Assembly (NCBI GenBank): GCA_027021705.1 | Contig: JALUTT010000073.1 | Coordinates: forward strand, 1 to 64,000 | DNA length: 64,000 bases | Reading direction: 5' to 3' | Source of the DNA: Anaerolineae bacterium | GTDB taxonomy: Bacteria > Chloroflexota > Anaerolineae > S140-20 | Program-made: the position numbers and the translations under genes | In this document: in pieces, positions 19,996 to 56,223 of the stretch | Layout of the letters: every line of letters starts with the position of its first letter | How positions within the stretch are numbered: position 1 is the first letter of the stretch | The notes under the pieces: generated by a model | Seen by the model: only the letters and a program-made list of their open reading frames with translations | Databases searched by the model: none | Told to the model about the DNA's origin: nothing

Positions 19996-20224
19996 CTCGC
20001 TCTCCCTCTACAAAAGGAAAGGGCCGTAAGGGCTGGGCCAGATAGGTTCTCCCCCCCTGGTCACCCTGTTTAACGGGGAAGGCGGCAAATCGTTACAATC
20101 CGTTTCCTGGAACGGGGGGAGGACTTTGGCATTATCGCTGGAATGTGCCCCATTCTATCACACCCCTCGGACCGATCCCATAAAGCTCACGTAAATCTGC
20201 CATTAAATCTTCGTAAGAACCGGC

Positions 20225-20379
20225 CGGTGATGACCCACAAGTGAGCGAGAGGGTGGTCCGTAGCAGGCCGTCCACGAATTTCTCACCAATGCACGAATGA
20301 GGCGGTCCTTCATTCGTGTATTCGTGCCCCATTCGTGGACGGCTGGTCTCCCTATCTCCAAAGATATGGGTAATCACCG
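20225..20379 (-). mobile_element. MITE-A copy 1 (155 bp)
   Basis: TIR CGGTGATGACCCA...TGGGTAATCACCG; AAGAACCGGC at 20215-20224 and 20381-20390. Confidence 0.9.
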
Positions 20380-20392
20380 CAAGAACCGGCCC

Positions 20393-20420
20393 TTGACAAA
20401 AGGACTGGGACGGCTATAAT
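20393..20420 (+). promoter_or_regulatory. thrS promoter
   Basis: TTGACA-16 nt-TATAAT. Confidence 0.85.
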
Positions 20421-20443
20421 ACCCTCCACAACCCCATCACGGA

Positions 20444-20710
20444 AAAGCGTTGATCGGGACGAGTAGCCGGGCTGAAGGTGTCAGGGAGAGGGGGTCGTGG
20501 ACTGGGAGCCCCCTTCACCGGACCCCGGTGAAAACCCCCCGGGAGTGGGCCTGGGAACGGAAGGGGAACCCCTTCTCAGTAACAGGCCACGGCTCAGCCC
20601 CGTTATCGGCTCAGAGGCCAGCGGGCCCGCCAGGGCGCGGCCCGCTGGTGAAGTTGGGTGGAACCGCGTGGGTGCCCCCCTCGCCCCAAGGGTGAGGGGG
20701 CGCTTTCGTT
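20444..20710 (+). ncRNA. T-box riboswitch (Thr specifier)
   Basis: AGGGAG and GACTG boxes, ACC at 20534-20536, T-box AAGTTGGGTGGAACCGCG at 20651-20668, terminator hairpin plus TTTCGTT; lies upstream of thrS. Confidence 0.9.
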
Positions 20711-20794
20711 AGGGGGATCGGACCAGGACGCATCCGGCGGTGGGTTGCTTTCCATCCGTCGTGATCAAACCCTTTTGAGAGGAGGCGTGGAACG

Positions 20795-22573
20795 ATGGCA
20801 GAGAGACAGGAGGATGATCGGCTTTACCGGATCCGCCACTCGGCGGCCCACGTGATGGCTCAGGCGGTGTTGGAGAAGTTCCCTGAGGGGAAGATCGCCA
20901 TCGGGCCGCCCATCGAGGACGGCTTCTACTACGACTTCGACCTGCCCCGGCCGCTGACGCCGGAGGACCTGGAGGAGATCGAGGCCCGGATGCGGGAGAT
21001 CATCACCGAGGGCCACGACTTCGAGTACCAGGTCATCAGCCCCGACGAGGCGCGGGAACTCTTCGCCGACCAGCCCTACAAGCTGGAGCTAATTGACGAC
21101 ATCCTCTCGCGCGGGACGGATGAGTACGGGGAGAAGACCGACGAACCCGTCCTTTCCATCTACCGGCACGGCCCCTTCGTGGACCTCTGTCGGGGACCCC
21201 ACGTGAGGAACACGCAGGAGATCAACCCCGACGCGGTCAAGCTGCTCAGCGTGGCCGGCGCCTACTGGCGGGGCGACGAGAACCGCCCTATGCTCCAGCG
21301 CATCTACGGCACGGCCTGGCAGACGGCCCAGGAGCTGGAAGAGTACCTCTGGCGGCTGGAGGAGGCGAAGAAGCGGGACCACCGGCGGTTGGGCCGAGAA
21401 CTGGACCTCTTCAGCGTCAGCGACGAGGTGGGACCGGGCCTGATCCTCTGGCACCCCAAAGGGGGGCTGGTCCGCCACCTCATCGAGTCCTTCTGCAAAG
21501 AGGAGCACCTGAAGCACGGCTACGACCTGGTCTACTCCCCCCACATCGGGCGGGCCGGCCTGTGGGAGCGCTCCGGCCACCTGGACTTCTACCGGGAGAG
21601 CATGTACGCTCCGATGGACGTGGAGGGTCAGGAGTACTTCATCAAGCCGATGAACTGCCCCTTCCACATCCAGATCTACCGGAGCCGTACCCGCAGCTAC
21701 CGGGACCTGCCCATCCGGCTGGCCGAGTGGGGGACGGTCTATCGTTACGAGCGGTCAGGGGTGCTCCACGGGCTGACGCGGGTGCGGGGCTTCACCCAGG
21801 ACGACGCCCACATCTTCTGTCGGCCCGACCAGGTGGAGGACGAGATCGGCCGGGTCCTGGACTTCACGCTGCACATCCTCCGCTCCTTCGGCCTGACCGA
21901 CTTCAGAGCCTACCTGGCCACCCGCCCGGAGAAGGCGGTGGGGGAGCCGGCCCGCTGGGAGCAGGCGACGGAGGCGCTGCGCCGGGCCATTGAGGCCCAC
22001 GGGCTGGCCTACGAGGTGGATGAGGGGGGTGGCGCCTTCTACGGCCCCAAGATTGACCTGAAGATCGCCGACGCCTTGGGCCGGGAGTGGCAGTGCACGA
22101 CCATCCAGTTCGACTTCAACCTGCCGGAACGGTGGGACCTGGCCTACGTGGGGGAGGACGGGAAGGAGCACCGTCCCTACATGGTGCATCGGGCGCTGCT
22201 GGGTTCGATGGAACGCTTCTTCGGCGTCCTCATCGAGCACTACGGCGGGGCCTTCCCCGTCTGGCTGGCGCCGGTACAGGCAGTGCTCATCCCCATCGCC
22301 GACCGACACTTGGACTACTGCTACCAAGTGGCGGAGAGGCTGCGGGAGGCCGGCCTGCGGGTGGAGGTCAACGCCTCCAAGGAGCGGATGGGGGCCAAGA
22401 TTCGGGACGCCCAGCTCCAGAAGATCCCCTACATGCTCGTCGTGGGAGATCGGGAGGTGAAGGGGGGTAACGTCGCCGTCCGGCTGCGCACCGAGGAGAA
22501 CCTGGGGGCGATCTCCGTGGATGCCTTCATCGCTATGGCCCAGGAGGCCATCGCCGAGAAGCGGTCGCTCTGA
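20795..22573 (+). CDS. thrS: Threonine--tRNA ligase (no N-terminal TGS domain)
   Basis: RHSAAHVMAQAV, DLCRGPH, RDHRRLG, KPMNCPFH, RVRGFTQDDAH, FYGPKID. Confidence 0.98.
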   Translation: MAERQEDDRLYRIRHSAAHVMAQAVLEKFPEGKIAIGPPIEDGFYYDFDLPRPLTPEDLEEIEARMREIITEGHDFEYQVISPDEARELFADQPYKLELIDDILSRGTDEYGEKTDEPVLSIYRHGPFVDLCRGPHVRNTQEINPDAVKLLSVAGAYWRGDENRPMLQRIYGTAWQTAQELEEYLWRLEEAKKRDHRRLGRELDLFSVSDEVGPGLILWHPKGGLVRHLIESFCKEEHLKHGYDLVYSPHIGRAGLWERSGHLDFYRESMYAPMDVEGQEYFIKPMNCPFHIQIYRSRTRSYRDLPIRLAEWGTVYRYERSGVLHGLTRVRGFTQDDAHIFCRPDQVEDEIGRVLDFTLHILRSFGLTDFRAYLATRPEKAVGEPARWEQATEALRRAIEAHGLAYEVDEGGGAFYGPKIDLKIADALGREWQCTTIQFDFNLPERWDLAYVGEDGKEHRPYMVHRALLGSMERFFGVLIEHYGGAFPVWLAPVQAVLIPIADRHLDYCYQVAERLREAGLRVEVNASKERMGAKIRDAQLQKIPYMLVVGDREVKGGNVAVRLRTEENLGAISVDAFIAMAQEAIAEKRSL

Positions 22574-22673
22574 ACGACCGCAGACGACCGACGGCGGACC
22601 GCAGACCCGGGCGACCGCCGGCCATCCGTAGGGTGGGTTTCTCACCCGCCTAAGGGTAGCTATGAAGGCTGCC

Positions 22674-24434
22674 CTACTCCCCGCCGCCGACCCAGCGAGG
22701 CATCTGGGCCTGTCCGTCCAGGGTCAGTTGCCACACCTGCTGCTTCGTCAGGTCCACGAGAAAGAGGTCTCCCCGGTCGGGGATGACCAACTGGCTCCCG
22801 TCGGGGCTCCAGGCCACGTCGGGCAGGTGGGGGCCGAGCAGCGGGACCTCATCGGTCGTCCCCACCTCCAGCGGGTAGACGCGCCGGCGGTTGCTCCCAT
22901 CCCGGTCCATCACGTAGACGGCATAAAGGCTGTTCTCGCTGGCATAGGGGTTGAGGGCCCGGCCAAAGGCGATGAGGCTCTCCGGCTCCCCGCCGGGGCC
23001 GGTCCGCTCGGGCGACCAGCGGGGCAGTGCCCACATCCCCGCCTCCTCGACCAGGCGGGCGGCCACCTCCCCATCGGTGCTGAGCACCCAGATGCCGAAG
23101 CGGGGGCTGTCTTCGGGGTTGACCGGCGCGCCGCCGGGGAGGCCGCCGGTGGGCGGATCGTGCAGGACGGCGACCAGGTAGCGGCCGTCCGGCGACCAGG
23201 AGGGCTCCGGCACCCAGACCCACTCCTGGTAGGTGCGGTAGGGAGGGAAGCGATAGAGGGTCTCCCGCCGCGCCCTCCGCAGGGGGATGATGCCGATCTC
23301 GTCGGCCCAGGCGTAGGCGATGGTGGTGCCGTCGGGGGACCAGGCGTAGTTCGTCCCCCACCATCCGTAAGCGCCACCGAAGATGGGGCCGAGTACCTGC
23401 CGCTTCCCCACCAGTTCCCCCGAGGCCGTCACCCGGGCGATCCAGAGGTCGTTGTTGGCCTGCCAGCCGGGGGGGCCCGGCGAGGACCGACCGGTCGTGT
23501 AGGCGATCCGATCCCCTCGAGGGGACCAGAAGGCTCCCAGCACGTTCTCCACCCCTAAGGGCTGGGGGCGTGCGTTGGAGACCGTCAGGTCCAGCAGCCA
23601 GAGGCTGTTGAAAGGGGGTTCCCTCGGGGGCTCCGCCGTCGAGCGGCCTGAGGGCAGGGCCGGCGTGGCGGCAGGGAGGGTTGCCGTCGGGGTGAGCCCT
23701 GGCGTTGCCGTGGGCACGCGGGTGAAGAGCAGCCACCGCCCGTCGGGGGATGGGGCGAAGACCCGCCGGTCCAGCCGCCCGTCGTCGGTCAGCCGGCGGC
23801 GGGCGGTGTTCGTCCCCCGCATCAGCCAGGCGTTGTAGCCTACCTCCTCGCTGCCGGAGATGTAGACCAACGTCCCGCTGATGGGCACCCGCTGGAGTTG
23901 CTCCTGAGCACCGGCCAGGACGATCTGAGGCTTGGGGGCCTCGATGATCCGTCGCTGGACTACCTGACGCTCCACCTCCACGCCATCTTCATAGACGACG
24001 CGGGTAATGATCTCCTCGATGCCGTTCTCCCCCGGGGCCAGCACGCGGCTCTCCCCCACCGGGATGCTGGCGTCCCGCAGCACTTGGGTCTCGTAGGGGA
24101 TGGGCCGCCGGGTGACCTCCTGGCGCTCCTCGACCCGGACGACGGTGACCGTCATCCCCTCCTCCAGCGGCATGTACTCCGGGGGCTGCACCCGATCCCG
24201 AGGCCCCAGCGTGATGCCCGCCTCGGCCAGTAAGTCCCGCACCGTCGTGGCCTGGGTGGTGATCTGGCGGGTCTGGCCGTCGGCGATGAGCGTGATCTGG
24301 TGGCGTCCGGCTGGTCGGGAGACGCAGCCCAGGAGGCCGCTCCCCAGCAGCAGGAGGACCAGCAGGGACCAGGGGGGAGCCGGAAACCGGCTGGGGGTAG
24401 GCTGGCGATGGGGTGAAGAGCAGAATCGTTTCAT
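22674..24434 (-). CDS. Lipoprotein with DUF348/G5 domains and TolB-like beta-propeller
   Basis: LLGC lipobox, TVRDLLAEAGITLG..DRV.P, G5-like segment, repeated WSPDG; start placed at ATG 24434. Confidence 0.85.
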   Translation of the reverse strand: MKRFCSSPHRQPTPSRFPAPPWSLLVLLLLGSGLLGCVSRPAGRHQITLIADGQTRQITTQATTVRDLLAEAGITLGPRDRVQPPEYMPLEEGMTVTVVRVEERQEVTRRPIPYETQVLRDASIPVGESRVLAPGENGIEEIITRVVYEDGVEVERQVVQRRIIEAPKPQIVLAGAQEQLQRVPISGTLVYISGSEEVGYNAWLMRGTNTARRRLTDDGRLDRRVFAPSPDGRWLLFTRVPTATPGLTPTATLPAATPALPSGRSTAEPPREPPFNSLWLLDLTVSNARPQPLGVENVLGAFWSPRGDRIAYTTGRSSPGPPGWQANNDLWIARVTASGELVGKRQVLGPIFGGAYGWWGTNYAWSPDGTTIAYAWADEIGIIPLRRARRETLYRFPPYRTYQEWVWVPEPSWSPDGRYLVAVLHDPPTGGLPGGAPVNPEDSPRFGIWVLSTDGEVAARLVEEAGMWALPRWSPERTGPGGEPESLIAFGRALNPYASENSLYAVYVMDRDGSNRRRVYPLEVGTTDEVPLLGPHLPDVAWSPDGSQLVIPDRGDLFLVDLTKQQVWQLTLDGQAQMPRWVGGGE

Positions 24435-24533
24435 CTCCGGTACATCCGTGAGCGTCCGCGTAGCCGCACCAATCGAATCCCTCCGCCCCTTGAGTTTACC
24501 ACAAAGGGGAAAGTTCTCCAAGGTAACTCAAAC

Positions 24534-24688
24534 CGGTGATTGCCCATATCTTTGGAGATAGGGAGACCAGCCGTCCACGAATGGGGCACGAATACACGAA
24601 TTAAGGACCGCCTCATTCGTGCATTTGTGAGAAATTCGTGGACGGCCTGCTACGGACCACTCTCTCGCTCACTTGTGGGTAATCACCG
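24534..24688 (+). mobile_element. MITE-A copy 2 (155 bp)
   Basis: TIR CGGTGATTGCCCA...TGGGTAATCACCG; TAACTCAAA at 24524-24532 and 24690-24698. Confidence 0.9.
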
Positions 24689-24701
24689 CTAACTCAAAGG
24701 G

Positions 24702-24730
24702 TTGCCGGGAACGGCGCGTTGTGTTACACT
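24702..24730 (+). promoter_or_regulatory. yggS promoter
   Basis: TTGCCG-17 nt-TACACT with TG extension. Confidence 0.65.
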
Positions 24731-24755
24731 GAAGCCCCAGGTGAGGAGGGAGACT

Positions 24756-25493
24756 ATGGTAGACATACAGGCAAACATCGCTGAGGTGTTGGAGCGGATC
24801 GGAGCGGCGGCGGCCCGGGTGGGGCGGGACGGGCGTGAGATCACCCTCGTCGCCGTCACCAAGACCCACCCGCCGGAGGCGATCGTCGCGGCCTACGAGG
24901 CCGGGCTGCGCCACTTTGGCGAGAATCGGCCTGAGGAGGGACGGGACAAGATCCCCCAGGTGTTGGCTCGCCTCTCGGGACCGGCCCCGACCTGGCATAT
25001 GGTGGGCCACATCCAAAGCCGCAAGGCCCGTGACGTGGTTGCCTTCTTCGACGTGGTCCACTCGGTGGACCGGCTCAAGATCGCCCGTCGGCTGAGCCGC
25101 TTCGCCCAGCAGAGCGGGCGTACCATCCCCATCCTGTTGGAGTGCAACATCAGCGGTGAGGTCACCAAGTATGGCTTCGCCGTGGATCGTTGGGAAGAGG
25201 ATCCCCTCCAGCGGACCCAGTTCCTGGATGACGTGACCCAGGTCCTGGCGCTACCGGCGCTGCGCGTCGAAGGGCTGATGACAATGGCCCCCATCGTCCC
25301 GGACCCTGAGATGGTCCGACCCCTCTTCCGGCGGCTACGGGCCCTGCGCGACTTCCTGGCCGACCAGTTCCCCGACGCCTCCTGGCACCACCTCTCTATG
25401 GGGATGACGGACGACTTTGAGGTGGCAGTAGAGGAAGGGGCGACGATGGTCCGCATCGGTCGGGCGATCTTCGGCCCCCGCTATCCCCTGTAA
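24756..25493 (+). CDS. yggS: PLP homeostasis protein (YggS family)
   Basis: [47 protein letters not shown]. Confidence 0.95.
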
Positions 25494-25561
25494 CACCCTC
25501 CTGACGCTCGCCGATCCTGCAACTTTCTCGCCCCTTGTGCGTAGAGAAAGGCAGATGGGGG

Positions 25562-25608
25562 GCAGATTGCGAATTGCAGATTGCGAATTGCAAATTGCAG
25601 ATTGCAAG
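25562..25608. repeat. Heptamer tandem repeat (GCRRATT, ~6 units)
   Basis: GCAGATT GCGAATT GCAGATT GCGAATT GCAAATT GCAGATT. Confidence 0.85.
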
Positions 25609-25636
25609 TGGCAGAGCGTAAGGAGGGTGGAACGCT

Positions 25637-26101: not shown

Positions 26102-26107
26102 AAGACG

Positions 26108-27570: not shown

Positions 27571-27571
27571 C

Positions 27572-29058: not shown

Positions 29059-29541
29059 GGAGGACTCTCCAAGCCCGACTCCCCGCCCCCGAGAAGGTCG
29101 GCCTTGCAAAGGCCTCCTACCCGGTGGGGGGCTTCTACGCGCCTGCCTCTGTAGGAGGGCCTTCCAAGCCCGACTCCCCGCCCCCGAGGTCGGCCTTGCA
29201 AAGGCCTCCTACACGGTGGGGGGCTTCGTACCTGCCTCTGTAGAGGGCTTTCCAAGCCCGATTCCCCGCCCCCGAGAAGGTCGGCCTTGCAAAGGCCTCC
29301 TACACGGTGGGGGGCTTCTACGCGCCTGCCTCTGTAGGAGGGCCTTCCAAGCCCGACTCCCCGCCCCCGAGGTCGGCCTTGCAAAGGCCTCCTACACGGT
29401 GGGGGGCTTCTACGTACCTGCCTCTGTAGGAGGGCCTTCCAAGCCCGACTCCCCGCCCCCGAGGTCGGCCTTGCAAGGGCCTCCTACCCGGTGGGGGGCT
29501 TCTACGTACCTGCCTCTGTAGGAGGGCTCTCCAAGCCCGAC
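29059..29541. repeat. Tandem REPIN array: five inverted GTAG-type REP pairs plus a half unit, ~90-bp period
   Basis: GTAGGAGGGCCTTCCAAGCCCGAC...GTCGGCCTTGCAAAGGCCTCCTAC repeated with near-identical linkers. Confidence 0.9.
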
Positions 29542-29984
29542 TGCCCCAGGTCCGGCCCGGCAGCCTCTAGCCGCTCCAGGAAGTCACGGACCGTGAGGAT
29601 CGGAACGCCCCGATACACCCCCAGGTCCAGCAGGTGGCGGTCACCACTGACGATCAGATCAGCCTGCGCATCCAAGGCACAGGCCAGCACCGCCTCGTCA
29701 TCCGGATCCTCGGGAATGGCCCCAGCGACCTCGGCGCGCCCCGGAACCAGGAGGGCGTCTTGCTCCAGGAGAGCCGTAAGCTGCTCGACATCGGCATCGG
29801 TGAGGGCATACTTGCGCCGGATGCGGGGGTAGTTTAGCACAGCCCGGATTTCAGCGATGAGGGCGGGAGAGGTGATCAAGAGGTACTCGCGTCTGCGCCA
29901 GGCATCAAGGACTTGAGCAGCGAGCCCCTTTCGGACCAACAGGCTGCTGACGAAGACGTTGGTGTCAAGAACCACCCGCAACAT
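29502..29984 (-). CDS. PIN-domain toxin (VapC-like)
   Basis: VVLDTNVFVS, EDPDD, IVSGDRHLL. Confidence 0.92.
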   Translation of the reverse strand: MLRVVLDTNVFVSSLLVRKGLAAQVLDAWRRREYLLITSPALIAEIRAVLNYPRIRRKYALTDADVEQLTALLEQDALLVPGRAEVAGAIPEDPDDEAVLACALDAQADLIVSGDRHLLDLGVYRGVPILTVRDFLERLEAAGPDLGQSGLESPPTEAGT

Positions 29985-30252: not shown

Positions 30253-30376
30253 CCAGCACCTCCTTTACCGAGCCCCCTTGCAGGTTCGGCAGTGGGGGAA
30301 GCTCTGAACTTCACCTGTAGGTGGAGGGTGAGCCCAACGGTCCAGAAGCCTGTGGGTGGGCCGGAAGCGACACCCG

Positions 30377-30498
30377 GTATCTATTCAGCCTACCCTCCCT
30401 CAGGTCACCGGTCGAGGGCGCTTTCAGCCCCGATGGGCTAATTGAAACACGGCCTCGCGTCGGAAACGCGCCTAACCTGCGGGAGGGTGAACAGTTGC
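30377..30498 (-). mobile_element. MITE-B copy 3 with perfect 8-bp TSD
   Basis: Reverse complement of 3735-3856; GACACCCG at 30369-30376 and 30499-30506. Confidence 0.88.
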
Positions 30499-30519
30499 GA
30501 CACCCGTAAGACAACGCTG

Positions 30520-40488: not shown

Positions 40489-41174
40489 CCGCCTTCTTCC
40501 TCCGGCGGGAGCAGTCGGTACCCCTGGCCTGCGACGGTCTCGATGTACCGAGGGTGTTCCGCCCTGTCATCCAGCTTGCGACGCAAGGAGTGGATGTGGA
40601 CCCGAACGCTGCCGGTGAACAGGTCAACATCCTCTCCCCAGACGTGCTCGATCAGTTCCTCCTGGCTGATGACCTCGCCAGGGTGACGCATAAGGTAGTG
40701 CAAGATCCCGAATTCCTTGCGGGTGAGCTTCAGCCGCCGCGTCCCCTGCCAGGCCGTTCGACTGGCCGGATCGAGTTTCAGATCACCGACGCACAAAATC
40801 GGCTCCCGCACTCTGAGATCACGCCTCAACAGTGCCCGGATGCGTGCCGCCAGTTCCTCGAAGTGGAAAGGCTTGACCAGGTAATCGTCGGCACCCAGAT
40901 CGAGTCCGGTGACTTTGTCTTCGAGCCGGCTACGGGCCGTCAGCATCAGGATGAGCAGTTTGGGTTTGCTGGCCCGCAGACGCCTGCACACTTCCAAGCC
41001 GTCCATTCCTGGCAAGTTGAGGTCCAGGATCACCAAGTCGTAGTCGTTGATCTCGCCCATCGCCCAGCCTTGCTCACCGTCTACAGCGATGTCCACCACG
41101 TAGCCCTGCTGGGACAGTCCACGAGCCAGGGCGTTGGCCAAGTCGAGTTCGTCTTCTACGAGCAGAATTCTCAT
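40485..41174 (-). CDS. OmpR-family response regulator
   Basis: ILLVEDE, LDLNLPGMDG, GADDYLVKPF, winged helix LTRKEF...IETVAGQGY. Confidence 0.96.
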   Translation of the reverse strand: MRILLVEDELDLANALARGLSQQGYVVDIAVDGEQGWAMGEINDYDLVILDLNLPGMDGLEVCRRLRASKPKLLILMLTARSRLEDKVTGLDLGADDYLVKPFHFEELAARIRALLRRDLRVREPILCVGDLKLDPASRTAWQGTRRLKLTRKEFGILHYLMRHPGEVISQEELIEHVWGEDVDLFTGSVRVHIHSLRRKLDDRAEHPRYIETVAGQGYRLLPPEEEGG

Positions 41175-41803
41175 TCCACCCTTTCAAGGGCTGAGGGGAA
41201 GACCTGAGCCACGGGAACCCGGAAGCCGGTCACGACTTGGGAGCGGACGATCTCCCCCAGACCGTACCGGCCGGCCAGCCGGTAGGCCTCTCCCTCCAAC
41301 ACGTAGACCTCAATGGTCCGAGCATCGGGGTCCACGATCCAGTACTCGGCCACCCTACCTTCCTGGTAAGCCCGCATCTTCTCCCGGCGGTCATAGAGCC
41401 AATTGCCGGGGGGAAGGATCTCGATGATCAGGTCAGGTGCGCCCTCCACATACTGCTCCCCGAGGATCTTCAGCCGCTCAGCCCGGATGAAGAGGATGTC
41501 CGGCTGGAAGGGAACCGGCTGGGAGGGCAGACGGACGCCCGTCGGCGCGAAGAGCACCTCTCCCTTCAGAGGGGGCGGATCGTCCCGCAGGAAGGCGGTG
41601 AGCGCCTCTACGAGGCGGGCAGCGATGCGTTGGTGCAGGGTGCTGGGCGGCGGGGCCATATAGAGCACTCCGTCAATCACCTCATAGCGATAGCCGTCGT
41701 CAGGAAGCCGCAACCAGTCCTCATAGGTCCATTGACCTTGAGGCGGGGGCCAGGCCCGTTCGGAAATCCTTGCCTCCTCCTGAGCCGTTGAAGCCTTTCC
41801 CAT
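41171..41803 (-). CDS. Uma2 (DUF820) family endonuclease
   Basis: YEVIDG, QPDILF, GAPDLIIEIL, EYWIVDP. Confidence 0.92.
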   Translation of the reverse strand: MGKASTAQEEARISERAWPPPQGQWTYEDWLRLPDDGYRYEVIDGVLYMAPPPSTLHQRIAARLVEALTAFLRDDPPPLKGEVLFAPTGVRLPSQPVPFQPDILFIRAERLKILGEQYVEGAPDLIIEILPPGNWLYDRREKMRAYQEGRVAEYWIVDPDARTIEVYVLEGEAYRLAGRYGLGEIVRSQVVTGFRVPVAQVFPSALERVE

Positions 41804-41866: not shown

Positions 41867-41895
41867 ATTGTACTTGCCCCTTTCAAGGGCGTCAA
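41867..41895 (-). promoter_or_regulatory. sigma70-type promoter of the Uma2/response regulator/kinase unit
   Basis: Minus-strand TTGACG-17 nt-TACAAT. Confidence 0.75.
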
Positions 41896-41907
41896 GGCCC
41901 CGTCGCC

Positions 41908-42062
41908 CTGTGATTACCCATATCTTTGGAGATAGGGAGACGAGCCGTCCACGAATGGGACACGAATACACGAATTAAGGACCGCCTCATTCGTGCATTG
42001 GTGAGAAATTCGTGGACGGCCTGCTACGGACCACTCTCTCGCTCACTTGTGGGTAATCACCG
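41908..42062 (+). mobile_element. MITE-A copy 3 (155 bp)
   Basis: TIR CTGTGATTACCCA...TGGGTAATCACCG; perfect 10-bp TSD CCCCGTCGCC at 41898-41907 and 42063-42072. Confidence 0.92.
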
Positions 42063-42084
42063 CCCCGTCGCCCTGTCCTACTGC

Positions 42085-44682: not shown

Positions 44683-44702
44683 AGCGTGGCCTCCGATGTA
44701 CG

Positions 44703-47286: not shown

Positions 47287-47352
47287 ACCCGGCATTATAC
47301 CACCTTTTGCCCGATTCTGCGAGATGAGCAGGCCCTGTCGGACAACACGAAG

Positions 47353-47382
47353 CGAGGCCGGGGGCAGACTCCCCCGGCCTCG
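47353..47382 (-). terminator. Hairpin downstream of the beta-helix gene
   Basis: CGAGGCCGGGGG-CAGACT-CCCCCGGCCTCG. Confidence 0.6.
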
Positions 47383-47421
47383 TCTTCCCGCTTCCTCGCC
47401 CAGGTTGGCGAAGCAGCGTCC

Positions 47422-50017: not shown

Positions 50018-53000
50018 TTACGGCCACCAGCGGCCTACATCTTGGATGGCCTGGAAGGTCCCGACAATGGCCTCTGGTCCGCCCAGGGCGTAGATAAGGG
50101 GGGCGAGGGCGCTCAGGTCGGAGAGGAGGTCCCGGCGGGTGCGCCGGGCGAGTGTGTGGAGCGTCTCCCGCCAGAGATCGTGGACGGCGTTTCGGTTCCG
50201 CTTTGCCCAGTTGGCCAAAGGGGAGGCCAGTGCCGAGAGCATCTTTCCCCGGGCACGGGTGTTCTCAACGTCCCGGGCGATCCTCAAAGTCTCCTTCAGG
50301 TCTTCTCTCGGGAGCATCTGCGGCAGGGAGGAGGCCAACTCTTCCAGTGCTTCGGCCTGTCTCTCAGCGTCCTTCTCCTCTCGCAGCGCGTCCAGAGCGT
50401 TCCGCAGAGCGTGTTCCTGCTCCGGCTCCGGCAGGTGGGGGATCAGACGGGCCAGAACCTGAACCCGCCGGGTCGGCCGGACGATCTCCTCCGTGGCCAT
50501 CATAGCCTCTAGGAGTGCCTGCCTCCGTAGCGCTTCCGGCGGATGGAACAAGGCCAGTTCCCGAAGTTCCTCGGCTCGCGTGGCCGCATCGGAGATCCCT
50601 CGGATCGTGGAGAGGGCCTCCAGCCAGCGGCCTTGTCCTGCCATAAGGCGTGCAATGGCCCTCAACACGCGATCGAACTGCCTCCTGGACCCATTGCCCC
50701 GAAGCGTTGGGGCAGCCCTCGCGACTTCCCATAGCATGGTCTCCCACGGGGAAAAGGCCGGTTCCTCTCCCATTTCCCAGAGTATTTGCTGCCGTAGGGC
50801 CGCAGGAAGGTAGGAGAGGTGAAGCAGTTCCCACACCACAGAGGCTTGGATCCAAGGGTCCTCAATCCCTCGTGCCGCTTCCCACGCTTCCCATAGGGCC
50901 TCTTCCCGTTGCGGAGGGGGCAGGTGGGCGGCCAACACCCGCAGAGTCTGGGCTCGCAGACTCTTGTCCTCGATCTCCCCCGCCGCCGACAGAGCTTTCT
51001 GCTGGACACCTTCTCGCAGCGTCGCCTCCGGGAAGTTGTGAGAGAGCAATCTTAGCAGGGCGTCAGCTTGCTGCCATGGGTCCTCGATCTGCGAGGCCGT
51101 TTCCACAGCTTCCTGCAGGGCCTCCTGTTGTCGTGGCTTCGACTCCTGCTGTTGTGACTCCGACTCCTGTTGTCGTGGCTCTGAGAGGTGGAGAGCCAGT
51201 TGCGCCAGCAGGTTGACCCGTAGGTAGGGGTCCTGGACGTTCCGGGTGGCTTGCCAGGCGTTCTGAAGGGCCTTTTCGCGATCCTGGGCTGAGAGATGGG
51301 GGGCAATGTCGGCCAGAGTCTGTGCCCGCCGGTACTCGTTGGTGATTTCGCGGGCTGCGGCCAGGGCCTCCTGGAGGGCCGCCCCCCGCTCCCCCCCCGC
51401 CAAGTGACGGGCCAGCTCGATCAACGTCCTGGCTTGTGCACCCCTATCCCCGATGCCCTGGACGGTTGCCAGAGCCTCTTGGAGAGCCCGCTTGCGGGGG
51501 GATGGCGGCAAGCGAGGAGCCAGTTCCAGGAGCACCTCCACCCGTGTCCGGGGGTCTCGGACCTCCCGGGCCGCCGTCAACGCCTCCCGGAGGACTTGTT
51601 GCCGTGCCGATTTCGACAAGTAGTAGGAGGTAGCCAGGTGCAAGAGCGTGCGGGCCCGAACCGGCGCGTCCCGAATCTGCCGCGCTGCGACCAGCGCTTC
51701 CGTGATGTAACCCTGTCTCGCCAGGCGCCGGACTTGGGTCTGGGGTAGCTCGACAGGCATCGTCCTTCTCCGAAGCACCGAGGCGGCTTTCTGGATCGCT
51801 TGCAAAGCTTGCTCTTCCCACTTCGGTGGGAGGTGATGGCTCAGCGCCAGGAGGGTCTCTATCCGAAGATGGGCATCTTGAATGCGCTGCGCTGCTGCCA
51901 AGGCCTCTAGACTCCGGCCCTGCTGCGCCAGACCCAATGCCCGGTCCCTGAACTCCTCATCCTGCGGGTTGCCCTCGCGGAGATCCCGGGCGGCTGCCAG
52001 CGCTTCCTCCAGGACAGGGGCGTACTGGGATGCCGGCAGATACTCGATCAGGCTGAGCAGGGCTCCGGCGCGGATCCGAGCATCCCGGATCGTTCGCGCC
52101 ACGTCCAACGCCTCGCGCAGCAGCGTCTCCGGGAGGTAGGGGGCCAGGGAGGCCAGGGCCTGAGCCCGTTGCTCCTCCCGCTCGATTCCCCGGGCGGCTG
52201 TCAGCGCTTCCCGGACGGCCCGTTCTCGCTGCTCGTCCGATACGTAAGAGCAGGAAGCAAGAGCCAGAAAAGCCTCGACCTGCTCTTTGGCATCGCGGGT
52301 ATTCCGAGCTACGGCCCAGGCTCGTGCTAATAAGCGCTGCTTCCACGTTTCGTTCGGCAGGTGGGGAACCAGATCCAACAGGGCTGCTACCTGATCTGGG
52401 CCTTTTCGGATACTCCTCACAGCCCTGCTCGCTTCGTGCCAGTCTCCCTGCTCGGCCCAGTGTCGGGCCAGCATCTTCAACACGTTATCCTCTAAGCTCT
52501 CTGTCTCCTGTACGGCCGCCTGTGCAACTTGTACCGCCTTGGCTCGCAACGCTTCCGACAGGTGAGGAAACAGGTCTGCAAGCGTCCGGATCCGTATCTC
52601 CACTCTCTCGATGTTGCTGGCTATGCTCAGGGCCTCTTCCTGCAGTGCTTCCGGCGAATGGGGAGCCAGGGTTCTGAGGATTGCGGCCTTCCATTCCTCC
52701 TCCTCAATCGCCCTCACCGTGGATAGGGCCTCCTGCCAGAGGGATTCCCGTTCCGACTCGGTTAGAGCGGGACAGGTTGCGATCTCCCGAAGTGCCTGGA
52801 TCCGATCCTCGGGCCATAGAATCCCTTGGGTGGCTTTCCGGGCTTTCTTCACGGCTTCTCCCTGTTGCCTATCTGGCAGGTGGGGAATCAGCTTTACGAG
52901 CGCTGACACGCGCTCTCGTTCGTCGGCAATCCGCGATGTTGCTTCCAACACCTCCTGCAGAGTTTGCTCCCGCTCCGGTTCGGGCATATAAGGAGCTAGG

Positions 53001-55687
53001 CCGGCGAGGGCCTTGATCCGGTCATCCCTGTCCTCAATCTGCCTGGCTATGGTCCATGCCCCTTGGAGTAAGGTCTCGTCCCTCTCGAGAGAAGGAGCCA
53101 GCCCGGCGAGGGCTTCTGCCCGGACCTCGGTCCATTCGATCTGCTGAACGACCGCTAGTGCCTTTGAGAAGAGGTCTTGGGACAGATGGGGGGCCAGCTT
53201 CACCAGTGCCTCCGCCCGTTGCCCCGCGTCCGGCGCCTGCCGGGCGTAGGCCAGCCCTTGGGCCGGAGGCCACTCCTTTTTCTCCACCAGTGCCGCCAGC
53301 AGTTGTGGGGGGATGTTCTTGGCCAGGCTGTTGAGGGAGGCAGTGATGAGGGCGTAGCGGCATTGGAGGGCGATGTCCTCACCCCTCTCCCCGGCCCCCT
53401 CCCCTCTCCCACCCGGTGAGAGAGGGGAGGGGGTGGCGGCGGCCGCTGTCGGGGGTTCTTCCACCAGCCCCCAGGCTCGCGCCACGTCGGTCAGGAAGCC
53501 GTCGGTGTCTCCCACGGCCTCCTTAGTCGCGTACCAGGCGTTCTCGTGCCGGCGGCGCTGGTGGGTCCGCTTCTGGCCCGGAAGTTGGCCAGGCCGCTCC
53601 TTCGGCCCAGGGCAGGTGTAGGGCACCTCCTCTTCATGCACCCATTCCACCCGCAACAGGCGATGCAGGTCCTCCCCCCGGCCCGCCCCTTCCAAGTGGG
53701 CCGCCAGGTGGCGCAGGCCGTAGCCGCCGTCCAGGTCCCGCCTCCCCGGCTCCCGCAGCCCCGGCAGCCCCGCCTCTAGCCCGCTCCAGGCCGCCAGGTA
53801 CCGGTCGGCGATGCGGGCGTGGGCCTGCTGCGTGGCCGCCGCCAGCTCCTCCGTCAGGCTCCGCTCCACCTCCGTCAGCCGCTCTAGGTCGGCCCGCCCG
53901 TCCAGGAACTCCCGCAGGCTGGCGTGGTAGAGGCGGTAGCGGCGGTCCCCTGCGGTGCCCTCCACGGCCAGGAAGGGCCGCCAGGCCTCCCGCAGTAACC
54001 GCTCCAGATCAGGCCGCACCTCCACCCCGGCCAGGGTGCAGAGCCGAGGGAAGGGGAGGGCCTCTTGGGCGGCGGCCAGGGTGCTCAGCAGAGGGAGGTA
54101 GTCGGTGTACCATCGGGGATCATCCCGCCACCGACTCCAGTACTGGGCGTAGTACTGCCACACGCCCTCCGGCAGGGTCGCCAGGTCCAGGGGGGAGCGC
54201 TCCCCGCGCTCGATCTCGCCCACCACGTAGTGCAGGTAGATCCACACCCCCCGGCATTTCTCCAGCAGCGCGGCCACGAACTGCTCCCGCGCATACCCCT
54301 GCTCGGCCAGGGCCCGGGCCACCCCCGACCAGGTGGCGGCCGCCTCCAGGTAGGCCCGCATATCGGCCCGGTTCTTCTCGCTCTGGGCTTCCAGGCGAAA
54401 GACCCGGCGCGGCCCCTCCACCCGCAGCGTCACCGCCACCGGCCGCTGGGAGATGATGAGGTAGACGCCTTGGGGGAGCACGCGCGGCAAGCCCAGGACG
54501 TTCTGGCCCGGCGGGGTTCCGGCCTCGTCCAGGCCGTCCACCACCAGGACGATTTGCTCTCCGGGCCGCACCTCGTCCCGCTTGCGGGCCGCCTCGAAGA
54601 GCAGGTTCAGGAGGAAGTGGGGGCGGGCTGCCGAGCCGGGCAGCACCCCCTCGGCCTGATGGGGGTCGAGCAGCCAGGCCCGCACCAATTGGGCGGCCAG
54701 GTTGCGTAGGCCGGTGGCGTCGTCACCGGGGGCCAGTTCCACGAAGTGGTGGATGTACCCCTGGGTCTTCACCAGGTGGGCCAGGAAGGTGGTCTTGCCC
54801 AACCCGGCGGCGGCTTCCAGGACGAACAGACCCCGGTCGTTATCCCGCAGGAAGGCGTCCACCTCGGCGGTCAGCCACTCCCGGCCCACGAAGCGGTCCA
54901 GCTTCACCCGCTCGAAGACGGACCAAGGGGGGATGTAGGCGTCCCGCAGCCGCTCGTAATCACCGACGAAGACCCGGTTGTGGTCGCCGGTGATGAGGAT
55001 GCTATGGATGGCCTGGCCGCCGATGGAGATGCTGCACTCACCGGAGGGTTCCTCGGGCTTCTCCGGCGGGTGCAGTTCCAGAGGCTCCGGGCACAGGGCC
55101 TGCACCGTCTCGGCGGGGATGGCGTAGGCGTAGCGTACTCTGGGAGCATCCTCTTCCTCAGGACGCCTCATATCGCGGTAACGGGTGATCATCCCGACCA
55201 CGCGCCCGGTGACGATGTCCAGCACCGGCGCGCCGCTGAGGCCCCTGTCCACTTCAGGTCCCTGGACCTGGAGTAGGCGGATGGGCCAGCCTTGCACCGG
55301 CACCAGCCCACCGATCTTCGCCTGGGGCCAGCGGGCGAGCGCAGGGCCGTCCGCCGGGTAGCCCAGGGCCTGGTAGGGATGGCCGTTGCTCCCGTGGGCC
55401 GGGCCCAAGGTGGCGGGGTGTGTTCCTTCGGGCAACACCCCAACCACCCGCAGGAAGGCCACATCCTTCTCCGGTTGCCAGCCCTTGGGGAGGACCTCGG
55501 CCTCCGCCGGTTCACCTCCAACGTGGAAGGCAAGCCGCACCCGCTTGCCCGGGCAGGCTCCGGCGGCCTCGACCACGTGCACGCAGGTCACCACCAGGTC
55601 CGGGCGCACGAGAAAGCCGGTGCCTATCGTCCGGCCCCTGGCGTTTTCGACGCGGACAACGCAAGCCTCCAGATCCGTTGCTTCCAC
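50018..55687 (-). CDS. Trypsin-like protease + STAND/NACHT-like NTPase + long helical-repeat protein (bacterial NLR-like)
   Basis: GTGF, TCVHVV, DVAFL, GLSGAPV; Walker A AAAGLGKT, Walker B VLVVDGLDE, YHAS; many EALAAAR.I...RA.AL..LAP.LP repeats. Confidence 0.88.
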   Translation of the reverse strand: MEATDLEACVVRVENARGRTIGTGFLVRPDLVVTCVHVVEAAGACPGKRVRLAFHVGGEPAEAEVLPKGWQPEKDVAFLRVVGVLPEGTHPATLGPAHGSNGHPYQALGYPADGPALARWPQAKIGGLVPVQGWPIRLLQVQGPEVDRGLSGAPVLDIVTGRVVGMITRYRDMRRPEEEDAPRVRYAYAIPAETVQALCPEPLELHPPEKPEEPSGECSISIGGQAIHSILITGDHNRVFVGDYERLRDAYIPPWSVFERVKLDRFVGREWLTAEVDAFLRDNDRGLFVLEAAAGLGKTTFLAHLVKTQGYIHHFVELAPGDDATGLRNLAAQLVRAWLLDPHQAEGVLPGSAARPHFLLNLLFEAARKRDEVRPGEQIVLVVDGLDEAGTPPGQNVLGLPRVLPQGVYLIISQRPVAVTLRVEGPRRVFRLEAQSEKNRADMRAYLEAAATWSGVARALAEQGYAREQFVAALLEKCRGVWIYLHYVVGEIERGERSPLDLATLPEGVWQYYAQYWSRWRDDPRWYTDYLPLLSTLAAAQEALPFPRLCTLAGVEVRPDLERLLREAWRPFLAVEGTAGDRRYRLYHASLREFLDGRADLERLTEVERSLTEELAAATQQAHARIADRYLAAWSGLEAGLPGLREPGRRDLDGGYGLRHLAAHLEGAGRGEDLHRLLRVEWVHEEEVPYTCPGPKERPGQLPGQKRTHQRRRHENAWYATKEAVGDTDGFLTDVARAWGLVEEPPTAAAATPSPLSPGGRGEGAGERGEDIALQCRYALITASLNSLAKNIPPQLLAALVEKKEWPPAQGLAYARQAPDAGQRAEALVKLAPHLSQDLFSKALAVVQQIEWTEVRAEALAGLAPSLERDETLLQGAWTIARQIEDRDDRIKALAGLAPYMPEPEREQTLQEVLEATSRIADERERVSALVKLIPHLPDRQQGEAVKKARKATQGILWPEDRIQALREIATCPALTESERESLWQEALSTVRAIEEEEWKAAILRTLAPHSPEALQEEALSIASNIERVEIRIRTLADLFPHLSEALRAKAVQVAQAAVQETESLEDNVLKMLARHWAEQGDWHEASRAVRSIRKGPDQVAALLDLVPHLPNETWKQRLLARAWAVARNTRDAKEQVEAFLALASCSYVSDEQRERAVREALTAARGIEREEQRAQALASLAPYLPETLLREALDVARTIRDARIRAGALLSLIEYLPASQYAPVLEEALAAARDLREGNPQDEEFRDRALGLAQQGRSLEALAAAQRIQDAHLRIETLLALSHHLPPKWEEQALQAIQKAASVLRRRTMPVELPQTQVRRLARQGYITEALVAARQIRDAPVRARTLLHLATSYYLSKSARQQVLREALTAAREVRDPRTRVEVLLELAPRLPPSPRKRALQEALATVQGIGDRGAQARTLIELARHLAGGERGAALQEALAAAREITNEYRRAQTLADIAPHLSAQDREKALQNAWQATRNVQDPYLRVNLLAQLALHLSEPRQQESESQQQESKPRQQEALQEAVETASQIEDPWQQADALLRLLSHNFPEATLREGVQQKALSAAGEIEDKSLRAQTLRVLAAHLPPPQREEALWEAWEAARGIEDPWIQASVVWELLHLSYLPAALRQQILWEMGEEPAFSPWETMLWEVARAAPTLRGNGSRRQFDRVLRAIARLMAGQGRWLEALSTIRGISDAATRAEELRELALFHPPEALRRQALLEAMMATEEIVRPTRRVQVLARLIPHLPEPEQEHALRNALDALREEKDAERQAEALEELASSLPQMLPREDLKETLRIARDVENTRARGKMLSALASPLANWAKRNRNAVHDLWRETLHTLARRTRRDLLSDLSALAPLIYALGGPEAIVGTFQAIQDVGRWWP

Positions 55688-55913
55688 CGCTCAACCCTAT
55701 CCCTTGTTTTGTCCGTGCTGTCTCAAAAGCATTGATGAGCTTATGCCGCATTTGCGCAATGATCGGCTCCTCATCTGCTCCAGATCATCGGAGAACACCG
55801 CGCCTTTTGGGGGAGGGAGGAGGATGTGGGCAACTAAGCTGACGGACAAGGGGCTCTTTCCAGGAATGCCTTCCCGCGCATCCTGGATGGCGCCATCACT
55901 CCTGTCATCGGCC

Positions 55914-55942
55914 ATTGTATGACAACTGGTCAGAAAAGTCAA
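55914..55942 (-). promoter_or_regulatory. Promoter of the protease-STAND gene
   Basis: Minus-strand TTGACT-17 nt-TACAAT. Confidence 0.7.
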
Positions 55943-56028
55943 GGAATTTACGCAACAACACAGTACAAATCCCCCAAGATACGCGATGCGCAATACGTGT
56001 CACACAATGCGACGCGACACGATTTCCC

Positions 56029-56183
56029 CGGTGATTACCCATATCTTTGGAGATAGGGAAACGAGCCGTCCACGAATGGGGCACGAATACACGAATCAAG
56101 GACCGCCTCATTCGTGCATTTGTGAGAAATTCGTGGACGGCCTGCTACGGACCACTCTCTCGCTCCCTTGTGGGTAATCACCG
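56029..56183 (+). mobile_element. MITE-A copy 4 (155 bp)
   Basis: Perfect 13-bp TIR CGGTGATTACCCA; perfect 9-bp TSD CGATTTCCC at 56020-56028 and 56184-56192. Confidence 0.93.
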
Positions 56184-56194
56184 CGATTTCCCTC

Positions 56195-56223
56195 TTGACA
56201 CAGAACAAATGTTCTGGTATCAT
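56195..56223 (+). promoter_or_regulatory. Promoter with a LexA/SOS box in the -35/-10 spacer
   Basis: TTGACA-17 nt-TATCAT; CAGAACA-AA-TGTTCTG (GAAC-N4-GTTC) at 56201-56216. Confidence 0.82.

Follow-up and report, generated by a model that had tools for sequence, protein, structure and literature searches.

Fixed-distance insertion of a 155-bp MITE upstream of putative promoters in an Anaerolineae genome and its probable link to a Tn5/IS4-fold transposase

Introduction

The 64,000-nt stretch of Anaerolineae DNA analysed here (the window) carries four 155-bp copies of a MITE, with 96-97% mutual identity and termini CGGTGAT...ATCACCG (CTGTGAT at the left end of copy 3), each beside a promoter-like hexamer pair, raising the question of whether this element is directed to promoters and, if so, by which enzyme and by which cue. 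A sequence-only reading of the window had proposed that the transposase is positioned by promoter-bound RNA polymerase or by promoter DNA geometry, in analogy to yeast Ty3. For TnGBS, ISLre2 and ISKra4, earlier work has reported insertion at a constant spacing on the upstream side of sigma-A promoters, together with the Ty3 analogy and the model of RNA polymerase contact, so that the novelty implied on these points was overstated (Guerillot et al., 2014, PMC3942029). According to the same paper, the distance to the -35 is 15-17 bp for TnGBS/ISLre2; the ISKra4 group, including Chloroflexi elements, is found in either orientation upstream of sigma-A promoters, with near-perfect inverted repeats, a terminal C and 8-9-bp repeats; and p-MULT transposases have, between their N1 and N2 domains, a signature motif tied to promoter targeting (PMC3942029). 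The narrower remark, that no IS4-like element has been described as behaving in this way, holds within the scope of our literature search, which turned up no such description. TnGBS and ISLre2 were reportedly treated by Brochet 2009 and Guerillot 2013, as cited by Guerillot et al. 2014.

Results

All four copies in the window are genuine. Every one is flanked by a separate 9-bp duplication, with a -35/-10 pair lying 11-13 nt beyond one of its ends, and the hexamers and distances read earlier were precisely recovered (Table 1). The leader of thrS measured from the copy 1 promoter is ~370 nt, and an Rfam scan of the window, this leader included, returned 0 families at gathering score.

Table 1. 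MITE copies, target duplications, promoter-like pairs and adjacent genes in the window, and in-register copies elsewhere in the assembly.
Feature	Position	Strand	Description
MITE copy 1	20225..20379	-	Inverted versus copy 2; 96.8% identity to copy 2
Copy 1 target duplication	20215-20223 (left), 20381-20389 (right)		AAGAACCGG; direct sequence reading
Copy 1 promoter-like pair	20393..20420	+	TTGACA (20393-20398), 16 nt, TATAAT (20415-20420); 13 nt off MITE end
Threonyl-tRNA synthetase (ThrRS, thrS) gene	20795..22573	+	Downstream of copy 1 promoter; tRNA-synt_2b, HGTP_anticodon, tRNA_SAD
MITE copy 2	24534..24688	+	Reference copy
Copy 2 target duplication	24524-24532 (left), 24690-24698 (right)		TAACTCAAA; direct sequence reading
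Copy 2 promoter-like pair	24702..24730	+	TTGCCG (24702-24707), 17 nt, TACACT (24725-24730); 13 nt off MITE end
YggS-like PLP-binding protein gene	24756..25493	+	Downstream of copy 2; Ala_racemase_N
MITE copy 3	41908..42062	+	Left end CTGTGAT
Copy 3 target duplication	41899-41907 (left), 42064-42072 (right)		CCCGTCGCC; direct sequence reading
Copy 3 promoter-like pair	41867..41895	-	TTGACG (41890-41895), 17 nt, TACAAT (41867-41872); 12 nt off left MITE end
Uma2-family endonuclease gene	41171..41803	-	Driven by copy 3 putative promoter; Uma2 E 5e-35
MITE copy 4	56029..56183	+	
Copy 4 target duplication	56020-56028 (left), 56184-56192 (right)		CGATTTCCC; direct sequence reading
Copy 4 promoter-like pair	56195..56223	+	TTGACA (56195-56200), 17 nt, TATCAT (56218-56223), TGg extended -10; 11 nt off MITE end
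FtsK/SpoIIIE-like ATPase gene	56286..57311	+	Downstream of copy 4
In-register copies beside promoters that lack a TTG -35	C48:125133, C8:35759, C77:52106, C56:107294, C81:3530		Other contigs of the assembly

Throughout the assembly (5.19 Mb, 183 contigs, 94.9% complete) there are 90 near-full-length copies, plus fragments, of this 155-bp, non-coding element with terminal inverted repeats and a target duplication, all features of a MITE. Its core reads as an extended, imperfectly palindromic stretch (GCCGTCCACGAAT...ATTCGTGGACGGC). Promoter-like pairs, defined as -35/-10 hexamers scoring >=8/12, were sought within 70 nt of a MITE end and were present at 81 of the 90 copies. For 67 copies the pair lies at 11-13 nt (15 at 11 nt, 41 at 12 nt and 11 at 13 nt), against 0.81% of 20,000 random intergenic positions under the same scan (binomial P ~1e-119), intergenic being defined by a mask from a crude GC3-based gene caller made for this analysis; no scored promoter occurs at 11-13 nt in the other 23. 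The histogram thus has a clear peak where the four window copies had suggested one. Furthermore, these copies differ by only +/-1 nt in their distance to the -35, and TTG or TTGAC at positions 12-16 is the strongest signal of the flank profile. No distance peak was seen for an unrelated MITE family that shares the intergenic space of this genome: of its 148 copies, just 18 have pairs scoring >=8, spread over 0-31 nt and one of them at 12 nt. Among other ends of the same type as those of the 155-bp element, 57 of 230 have a pair scoring >=8, 39 of these 57 at 11-13 nt. Fixed-distance targeting is therefore a genome-wide property of this family. Spacers of 16 or 18 nt are rare among these promoters, a thin sample for relating spacer length to distance with either the -35 or the -10 as anchor.

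The insertions are independent, as claimed from the window: in 67 of 88 copies the 9-mers abutting the two ends share >=7/9 positions, which holds for 20 of 1760 pairings after shuffling, and exact duplications are most often 9 bp long. Host DNA also supplies the -35, which follows the duplication after 2 nt in 17 and 3 nt in 24 of 41 scorable cases, and the promoter side may be taken by one end of the element or the other (43 vs 29 copies), in line with the earlier reading on both counts. Eight of 88 copies adjoin another element with a same-type end across a 9-11-nt spacer, and in seven of these eight abutting 155-bp copies the opposite end faces a promoter at 11-12 nt. Called coding DNA occupies both flanks in only 2 of 90 copies.

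Motifs and gene orientation were the basis for assigning promoters. A good -10 accompanies 41 of 46 MITE-adjacent TTGAC sites versus 248 of 1802 other intergenic TTGAC sites (13.8%; odds ratio 51), which puts a MITE copy at ~14% (41 of 41+248) of the TTGAC promoters whose -10 is good. The gene on the promoter side points away from the element in 51 of 71 copies and toward it in 3, as against 28 away and 29 toward on the non-promoter side. Judged by these motifs, full putative promoters, not bare TTGAC, are the targets. Moreover, five copies lie in register before TGnTATAAT-type (extended -10) promoters without a TTG -35, for a background of 0.56% per side, and in 26 of 27 copies of an unrelated 2-kb IS (IS66/MULE-like) of the same genome the right end falls 9-12 nt away from the same promoter position.

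Of 400 other genomes from the class, 30 contain the end motif, and its reversed form, used as a control, had 0 matches; the same 15-19-nt ends bracket insertion sequences of ~1.4 kb. These contain 439-475-aa transposase genes in six genomes (G279, G189, G040, G126, G226 and G365); in G305 the gene is frameshifted. In at least seven other genomes the ends around IS4-like genes are identical to those of the MITE at up to 18/19 nt. Ends of the autonomous ISs are mostly TGGTGAT, those of this assembly CGGTGAT. The 11-13-nt spacing is repeated in the ~1.4-kb ISs and in MITEs of two further genomes (G153 and G208), the former having 46 end matches as well as an IS4-like gene fragment at the edge of a contig, and at the same locus a near-match that differs from the end motif by one inserted base. 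In the assembly under study (94.9% complete, 183 contigs, repeats being often unassembled), 0 copies of the IS4-like transposase gene were found, and no pair of ends 0.3-4 kb apart was sized to hold an IS; hence the autonomous relative that the sequence-only reading had anticipated was located in other genomes of the class but not in this one. Matches to GGTGATGACCCC on contigs C13 and C58 fall within RHS-type genes and were put down to chance, and a candidate IS on contig C8 of G142 was discarded as a lone end amid repeat-rich non-coding DNA.

The element is absent from the same-family genomes G001-G003. Regarding empty sites, no copy-skipping joint occurred among the joints listed for four public runs, Logan contigs break inside the MITE at both sites, and the nearest ThrRS relatives among metagenome contigs are <=70% identical, too distant for intergenic comparison.

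NCBIfam IS4 models matched the end-linked transposases at E 6e-17 to 1e-6, under their cut-offs (best transpos_IS4_1/2/3 score of 61.8 bits vs 152), and because of these sub-threshold scores we refer to them as a distant relative or a separate family and not as an IS4 member. The library searched contains ISKra4 and IS256 models, and no ISKra4, ISLre2 or IS256 model was among the matches at E<=1. Pfam DDE_Tnp_1 was recognized in 12 of 21 family members (best E 2e-11) and Tnp_DNA_bind in one. As a profile search against PDB sequences gave nothing significant, a fold search was needed, in which the AlphaFold model (pLDDT 83.8) matched the Tn5 transposase (Foldseek E ~1e-17, TM 0.60-0.67; 3ecp, 1muh). 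The top five hits were Tn5 chains with ~480 aligned columns, the IS256-type ISCth4 transposase ranking 36 (E 0.027). A Tn5-like N-terminal DNA-binding region, a DDE_Tnp_1-type catalytic domain and a Tn5-like fold with beta insertion are predicted, and the model indicates that the fold is Tn5/IS4, not Mutator-like, so the description of the element as IS4-like holds at this level.

The IS4 signature reads Y-(2)-R-(3)-E-(6)-K around the catalytic E; conserved in the family alignment are Y353, W356, I362, E363 and Y366-R367-F368, e.g. YTEWRYRPQIEHTYRFDQ, with a spacing unlike that motif and no conserved K. In metagenomes the family comprises 2268 proteins at E<=1e-10, and the best 120 of the 2268 are called 'hypothetical protein' wherever the source gives a name. 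An IS1-family origin, considered from the GGTGAT ends and 9-bp duplication, was rejected, with no DDE_Tnp_IS1 match in the genome and a Tn5-like linked transposase. A complex prediction for the G189 transposase and its sigma-A region 4 scored 0.00, counting neither for nor against binding.

Discussion

As a whole, these data are best explained, with a probability of roughly 80%, by an IS4-fold family whose transposase targets a position upstream of the -35, RNA polymerase being the likely cue. The 155-bp element would probably be a non-autonomous derivative of an unannotated IS family with ends [C/T]GGTGATTACCCAYA and a 9-bp duplication, and its copies in this genome have very probably been mobilised by the IS4-like enzyme. 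The transposase would make staggered cuts at housekeeping sigma-A-type promoters so as to leave 2-3 bp between the duplicated 9 bp and the -35 downstream of them, at about positions -38 to -47 as numbered from the location of the -35. Core promoter and gene would be left intact, and such a site would therefore be a safe harbour, while repeat insertions at one spot would build tandem arrays. The positional cue would most likely be a promoter bearing RNA polymerase holoenzyme, and less likely the TTGACA sequence itself, with sigma region 4, the alpha C-terminal domain or the DNA bend that these impose as candidate contacts. We lean slightly towards guidance by RNA polymerase, a view strengthened by the five copies at promoters without a -35.

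Alternatively, the transposase might read promoter DNA directly, as a composite -35/-10 motif or an intrinsic shape, the preference for full promoters arising from its own DNA recognition without RNA polymerase. The dominant TTG signal, the +/-1-nt variation and the predicted N-terminal DNA-binding region, together with the single Tnp_DNA_bind match, speak for this possibility; however, we regard it as unlikely, given the in-register copies lacking a TTG -35, the presence of a second, unrelated IS at the same promoter position and the scarcity of adjacent TTGAC without a good -10 (5 of 46, vs 86% of other intergenic TTGAC, where insertion should be neutral). In addition, the predicted structure shows the Tn5 layout with no extra domain that might reach across 35 bp. 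Some direct read-out may nonetheless contribute, considering the strong TTG enrichment at the site.

An improbable reading, though one compatible with targeted insertion, is that copies are kept for serving promoters as insulators, hairpin terminators against read-through or upstream activating DNA, for which the palindromic core and the ~14% occupancy could be cited. Yet copies are found in both orientations, and other cores with the same ends, as well as whole 1.4-kb ISs, behave likewise, so position depends on the ends and the enzyme rather than on the cargo.

Even more doubtful is that an ISKra4-family (Mutator-like, p-MULT 4) transposase moves the MITE here, which would make it a miniature of the promoter-targeting group already described. 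Contig C168 does encode one ISKra4-family transposase (247 bits, above cut-off), the IS4-like gene was not found in the assembly, and the traits published for the group all fit the MITE (PMC3942029). Nevertheless, that gene is single-copy, no GGTGATTACCC-type end is present in the DNA downstream of it, and its protein has no similarity to the end-linked transposase, which in turn is not alignable to p-MULTs; the same ends bracket IS4-like genes in the other genomes, and G153, rich in end matches, has an IS4-like fragment beside a near-match end.

Finally, random insertion followed by purifying selection that spares harmless sites just upstream of promoters predicts the rarity of copies flanked by coding DNA on both sides, but the earlier suggestion of selection against other positions has a negligible chance as sole cause and is excluded in that role by the unrelated 148-copy MITE and by tandem arrays. 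Random intergenic sites give 0.81%, and selection cannot produce the +/-1-nt precision or arrays that re-use one duplication.

The probable targeting of a position upstream of the -35 by an IS4-fold enzyme has several known counterparts. Like the MITE family, TnGBS/ISLre2 (p-MULT 3) combine DDE transposition, a fixed distance upstream of a sigma-A -35, an 8-9-bp duplication and a safe-harbour logic; they differ in having a Mutator-like transposase instead of a Tn5/IS4 fold, in being oriented (right repeat adjoining the promoter) at 15-17 bp instead of inserting in both orientations at 11-13 nt, and in their hosts, Firmicutes as opposed to Anaerolineae-type Chloroflexota. The ISKra4 group shares promoter proximity, both orientations, near-perfect inverted repeats, the terminal C (in this assembly) and 8-9-bp repeats, whereas the end-linked transposase matches no ISKra4 model and the one ISKra4-type gene of the genome is without these ends. 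With Tn5/IS50 and IS10 (IS4 family) the MITE family has in common the overall transposase fold, the DDE_Tnp_1 signal and short inverted ends, but all its NCBIfam IS4 scores are sub-cut-off and most members are without a Pfam match. Tn5 and IS10 likewise make a 9-bp target duplication, and their target choice follows a loose sequence or bend preference, not promoters. Yeast Ty3, which integrates at Pol III start sites, is a functional analogue only, in that the transcription initiation complex places integration within a few bases; it uses a eukaryotic retrotransposon integrase for which TFIIIB/TFIIIC contact is demonstrated (as cited in PMC3942029), whereas in the MITE family polymerase contact is inferred. 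In bacteria, promoter targeting at a fixed distance was previously known only for Mutator-like transposases, and here it occurs in an unrelated, unannotated Tn5/IS4-type family.

Conclusion

A Tn5/IS4-fold case with >100 natural sites in one genome, replicated elsewhere, points to convergent evolution of the safe-harbour strategy and offers a second, structurally well-understood scaffold on which to study promoter sensing by transposases. The long-standing hypothesis of RNA polymerase contact becomes sharper with the copies whose promoters lack a -35 and with an unrelated IS that targets the same position. It is conceivable, at a little less than even odds, that RNA polymerase holoenzyme on promoters is the target platform for at least two unrelated transposase lineages in one genome, the Tn5/IS4-fold family and the IS66/MULE-like 2-kb IS; if so, there would be at least three independent origins, counting the published Mutator-like elements, and the Tn5-like enzyme would be a natural promoter-directed 'tagmentase' that cuts at a fixed position beside sigma region 4. 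A promoter-directed Tn5 relative could be a useful tool, and in this uncultured Chloroflexota lineage the elements themselves flag putative promoters, occupying ~14% of the strong TTGAC ones.

Results

Elements with ends of the 155-bp MITE insert at a fixed distance beside full promoters. By blastn, the MITE matched 266 pieces of the 5.19-Mb assembly (183 contigs, 66% G+C), 90 of which span element positions ≤5 to ≥151, and a scan of the 70 nt outside each end for the closest match to TTGACA-16/17/18-TATAAT gave a score of at least 8/12 in 81 of these 90 copies. The -35 box lay 11 nt (15 copies), 12 nt (41 copies) or 13 nt (11 copies) from the element end, i.e., at 11-13 nt in 67/90 copies; the remaining 14 scoring copies were scattered between 4 and 35 nt. 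Among 20,000 random positions in DNA left uncalled by a crude GC3-based gene caller, 10.5% scored ≥8, 0.81% did so at 11-13 nt, and the distance histogram was flat (67/90 vs. 0.81%, binomial P ~1e-119). Either end can face the promoter, the "right" one in 43 copies and the "left" one in 29.

A sequence-only reading had described promoter-adjacent insertion from the four window copies, an observation that is hereby confirmed and greatly extended. The positions, hexamer pairs and distances that it gave were exact (Table), the copies being 155 bp each and 96-97% identical, with termini CGGTGAT...ATCACCG and a 9-bp duplication of their own; its length of 9-10 bp arose because an additional C frequently separates the duplication from the MITE end. 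Rfam, T-box included, gave no match at gathering score to the leader that separates the predicted thrS promoter from the coding start. Beyond the window, the right flank of the older fifth copy terminates in further end-like sequence (GGGTTATCACCG), and C117:99609 has almost the same flank.

Features of the window (C73:1-64000), of other contigs and of related elements in other genomes (G numbers)
Feature	Location	Duplication	Promoter-like pair; distance (nt)	Remarks
MITE	20225-20379	AAGAACCGG	TTGACA-16-TATAAT; 13	Inverted; threonyl-tRNA synthetase downstream
MITE	24534-24688	TAACTCAAA	TTGCCG-17-TACACT; 13	YggS-like protein downstream
MITE	41908-42062	CCCGTCGCC	TTGACG-17-TACAAT; 12	Uma2 endonuclease downstream (minus strand)
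MITE	56029-56183	CGATTTCCC	TTGACA-17-TATCAT; 11	FtsK-like ATPase downstream
Older MITE	C73:67589-67723			Just beyond window; 84.5% identity, 20-nt deletion
~122-bp MITE-like family	3552-3672			
~122-bp MITE-like family	3732-3852			
~122-bp MITE-like family	30368-30504			
~122-bp MITE-like family	57362-57495			
Predicted thrS leader	20421-20794			~370 nt
Tandem array	1-940			Contig start; ~85-bp repeats (GCGGGGCTGGGAGGATTGGGGATTCCCC...)
Tandem repeat	29060-29594			92/183 nt, four copies, 64-98% alike
2.0-kb IS, complete	C160:788-2800			
2.0-kb IS, right end	C73:~101873			Outside window
ISKra4-family gene	C168:5-1069			1.1-kb contig; runs into end of C41
Element	G305		TTGACA-17-TATATA; 11	From right end
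Element	G279		TTGACT-17-TATAAT; 12	From left end
Element	G040		Promoter-like pair; 11	From each of both ends
Element	G189		Promoter-like pair; 11	2/3 copies with intact gene
Deleted copy	G129		Promoter-like pair; 14	
~141-bp MITEs	G153		11-13 in 8 of 10	18 distinct ends, 10 scoring ≥8
MITEs	G208		Same spacing	3/5 ends

The insertions are site-specific and, as had been proposed, independent: in 88 copies with 60-nt flanks, the abutting 9-mers matched at ≥7/9 positions in 67 copies, against 20 of 1760 shuffled pairings. An exact target duplication (mode 9 bp) was present in 44 copies, and where it was accompanied by a promoter the gap from it to the -35 was 2 nt in 17 cases and 3 nt in 24. Eight of the 88 copies adjoin another element with the same end type across a 9-11-nt spacer, the 155-bp copy being promoter-proximal in seven of these eight pairs, the pattern expected if insertion recurred at a point that the promoter defines. 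Moreover, a further 230 ends of this type, made up of truncated copies, many chance matches and a ~163-nt family whose core differs, included 57 with a pair scoring ≥8, of which 39 lay at 11-13 nt; targeting tracks the ends, not the cargo. Three genomes from other families (G016, G018 and G019), all devoid of MITE ends, contain sequences matching the palindromic MITE core (positions 37-113, with CCACGAAT-type arms) at 78-94%; the core may thus be a hairpin module that spreads on its own.

Selection against other positions, raised as a caveat in the sequence-only reading, does not produce the peak, because a second, unrelated MITE family (~122 bp, 6-bp duplication, ~150-200 genome copies) shows no promoter association; of its 148 usable copies, 18 scored ≥8, spread over 0-31 nt, with one at 12 nt. 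On the promoter side of the 155-bp MITE the called gene pointed away in 51/71 copies and toward the element in 3, and on the other side it pointed away in 28 and toward in 29. At 41/46 TTGAC sites 11-13 nt from a MITE a good -10 followed at 16-18 nt, compared with 248/1802 (13.8%) other intergenic and 1.6% of 5640 coding TTGAC sites. Insertion beside a non-promoter intergenic TTGAC ought to be neutral, yet nearly none was found there. Among the 88 copies, 55 combined an in-register TTG with a strong -10, 18 had TTG only, 7 had neither, and 8 had a strong in-register -10 but no TTG in the 11-13-nt interval, of which three carried TTG at 14-15 nt. The other five of these eight were devoid of any TTG -35 (hexamers TGGTCT, TACCCC, TCGCCT, TGGTCC and TGGACG), all with a TGn-extended -10, whereas the chance rate of a strong in-register -10 is 0.56% per side, which argues that what fixes the position is the whole functional promoter, not the TTGACA word.

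A 2.0-kb IS that interrupts many contigs, with ends GCGAGCGTATCGAG... and ...CTCGTGACGGTCGC, is a second, oriented and unclassified promoter-targeting element. Of its 27 right ends genome-wide, 26 lay 9-12 nt upstream of a promoter's -35 position and the 27th was a tandem junction; the -10 was a perfect TATAAT in 24/27, mostly TGn-extended, and the -35 was weak. An in-register promoter was found at none of the 24 left ends. In at least four places (C33, C40, C150 and C175) the left end lies 8-10 nt from a MITE end; therefore, two unrelated elements share an insertion point. Full-length relatives encode proteins of ~780-890 aa, one of which (834 aa) matched Pfam DDE_Tnp_IS66 above cut-off (E 2e-9), matched MULE, IS6, ISL3 and IS256 models weakly, and did not match ISKra4.

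The 15-nt end motif was present in 30 of a sample of 400 further genomes of the class, and its reversed control in 0/401 genomes searched. In other genomes it flanks ~1.38-1.45-kb elements, which encode a single protein of 439-475 aa (G279, G189, G040, G126, G226 and G365; truncated to 400 aa in G040) or a frameshifted gene copy (G305). The right end of the MITE is identical to the G189 element at 18/19 nt, and the left end to the G279 and G226 elements at 16/17 nt. The G279 protein had no Pfam match, and DDE_Tnp_1 was matched by 12/21 aligned family members; NCBIfam IS4 models gave significant yet sub-threshold matches (E 6e-17 to 1e-6), IS1380, IS1634 and IS701 models weaker ones, and the ISKra4 and IS256 models of the same library none. 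For the AlphaFold model (mean pLDDT 83.8, pTM 0.83) the best five Foldseek matches were Tn5 transposase (E ~1e-17, TM 0.60-0.67, ~480 aligned columns), with the IS256-family ISCth4 transposase at rank 36 (E 0.027). This transposase family is large and unannotated, with 1470 clusters at E≤1e-3 in a representative library and 2268 proteins at E≤1e-10 in another collection; among the best 120 of the 2268, every source-given name was "hypothetical protein", and two were labelled Anaerolineae bacterium. An IS1 origin of the MITE, which the GGTGAT termini and the duplication length of 9 bp had suggested, was rejected, no IS1 transposase occurring in the genome.

Discussion

The same spacing recurs in G305, G279, G040, G189, G153 and G208, and targeting is therefore a property that the end-linked ISs share in several families of this class; no in-register promoter was found at the G126 (5 and 7 nt), G226, G365, G271 and G390 elements. 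In the assembly of the present organism, which is 94.9% complete, the IS4-like gene was not found by a single-protein search or a 21-row profile search. Repeats are commonly lost from assemblies. Mobilization of the MITE by an ISKra4-family transposase is very improbable: such a gene is present (247 bits, above cut-off), whereas the IS4-like gene was not found, but the ISKra4-family gene is single-copy and cut by contig ends, the DNA past its stop codon has no GGTGATTACCC-type end, and the protein that it encodes shows no relationship to the IS4-like transposase. Matches to the end motif on two short contigs (C13 and C58), which carry RHS-repeat-type C-terminal cassettes and small downstream ORFs resembling polymorphic toxins, were chance matches.

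In the established architecture of promoters, the DNA immediately upstream of the -35 is the meeting place of sigma region 4 and the alpha C-terminal domain. A Tn5-like dimer would capture target DNA there, at roughly -38 to -47 (numbering inferred from the -35), and could do so in either orientation because the two MITE ends are nearly identical. We consider promoter-bound holoenzyme, or the bend that it induces, to be the guide, with a probability slightly above one half (about 0.55). Direct read-out of DNA by the transposase is rather doubtful, given the -10 requirement, the five promoters that lack a -35, the second IS at the same point, and a predicted transposase model that shows no extra domain; the same observations favor guidance by holoenzyme or its bend.

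The sequence-only reading, which likened this placement to Ty3 targeting, was right in substance but not the first. According to Guerillot et al. (2014; PMC3942029), TnGBS and ISLre2 elements enter sigma-A promoter regions in a single orientation, 15-17 bp upstream of the -35, and thirteen ISKra4-group ISs with near-perfect repeats do likewise in either orientation; the repeats have a terminal C, duplications are 8-9 bp, and contact with the RNA-polymerase initiation complex is proposed by analogy with Ty3. Both the phenomenon and the mechanistic idea are therefore already in print. The geometry differs as well: only 2-3 bp separate the MITE duplication from the -35, against 6-8 bp for TnGBS, assuming a 9-bp duplication there. 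Searches of open-licence PubMed Central and bioRxiv papers, followed through listings, abstracts and passages of PMC9208149, yielded no report of promoter targeting by an IS4/Tn5-type element or MITE. In brief, promoter-targeted transposition is a known process, and the present example of it involves a transposase family of Tn5/IS4 fold together with the MITEs of that family.
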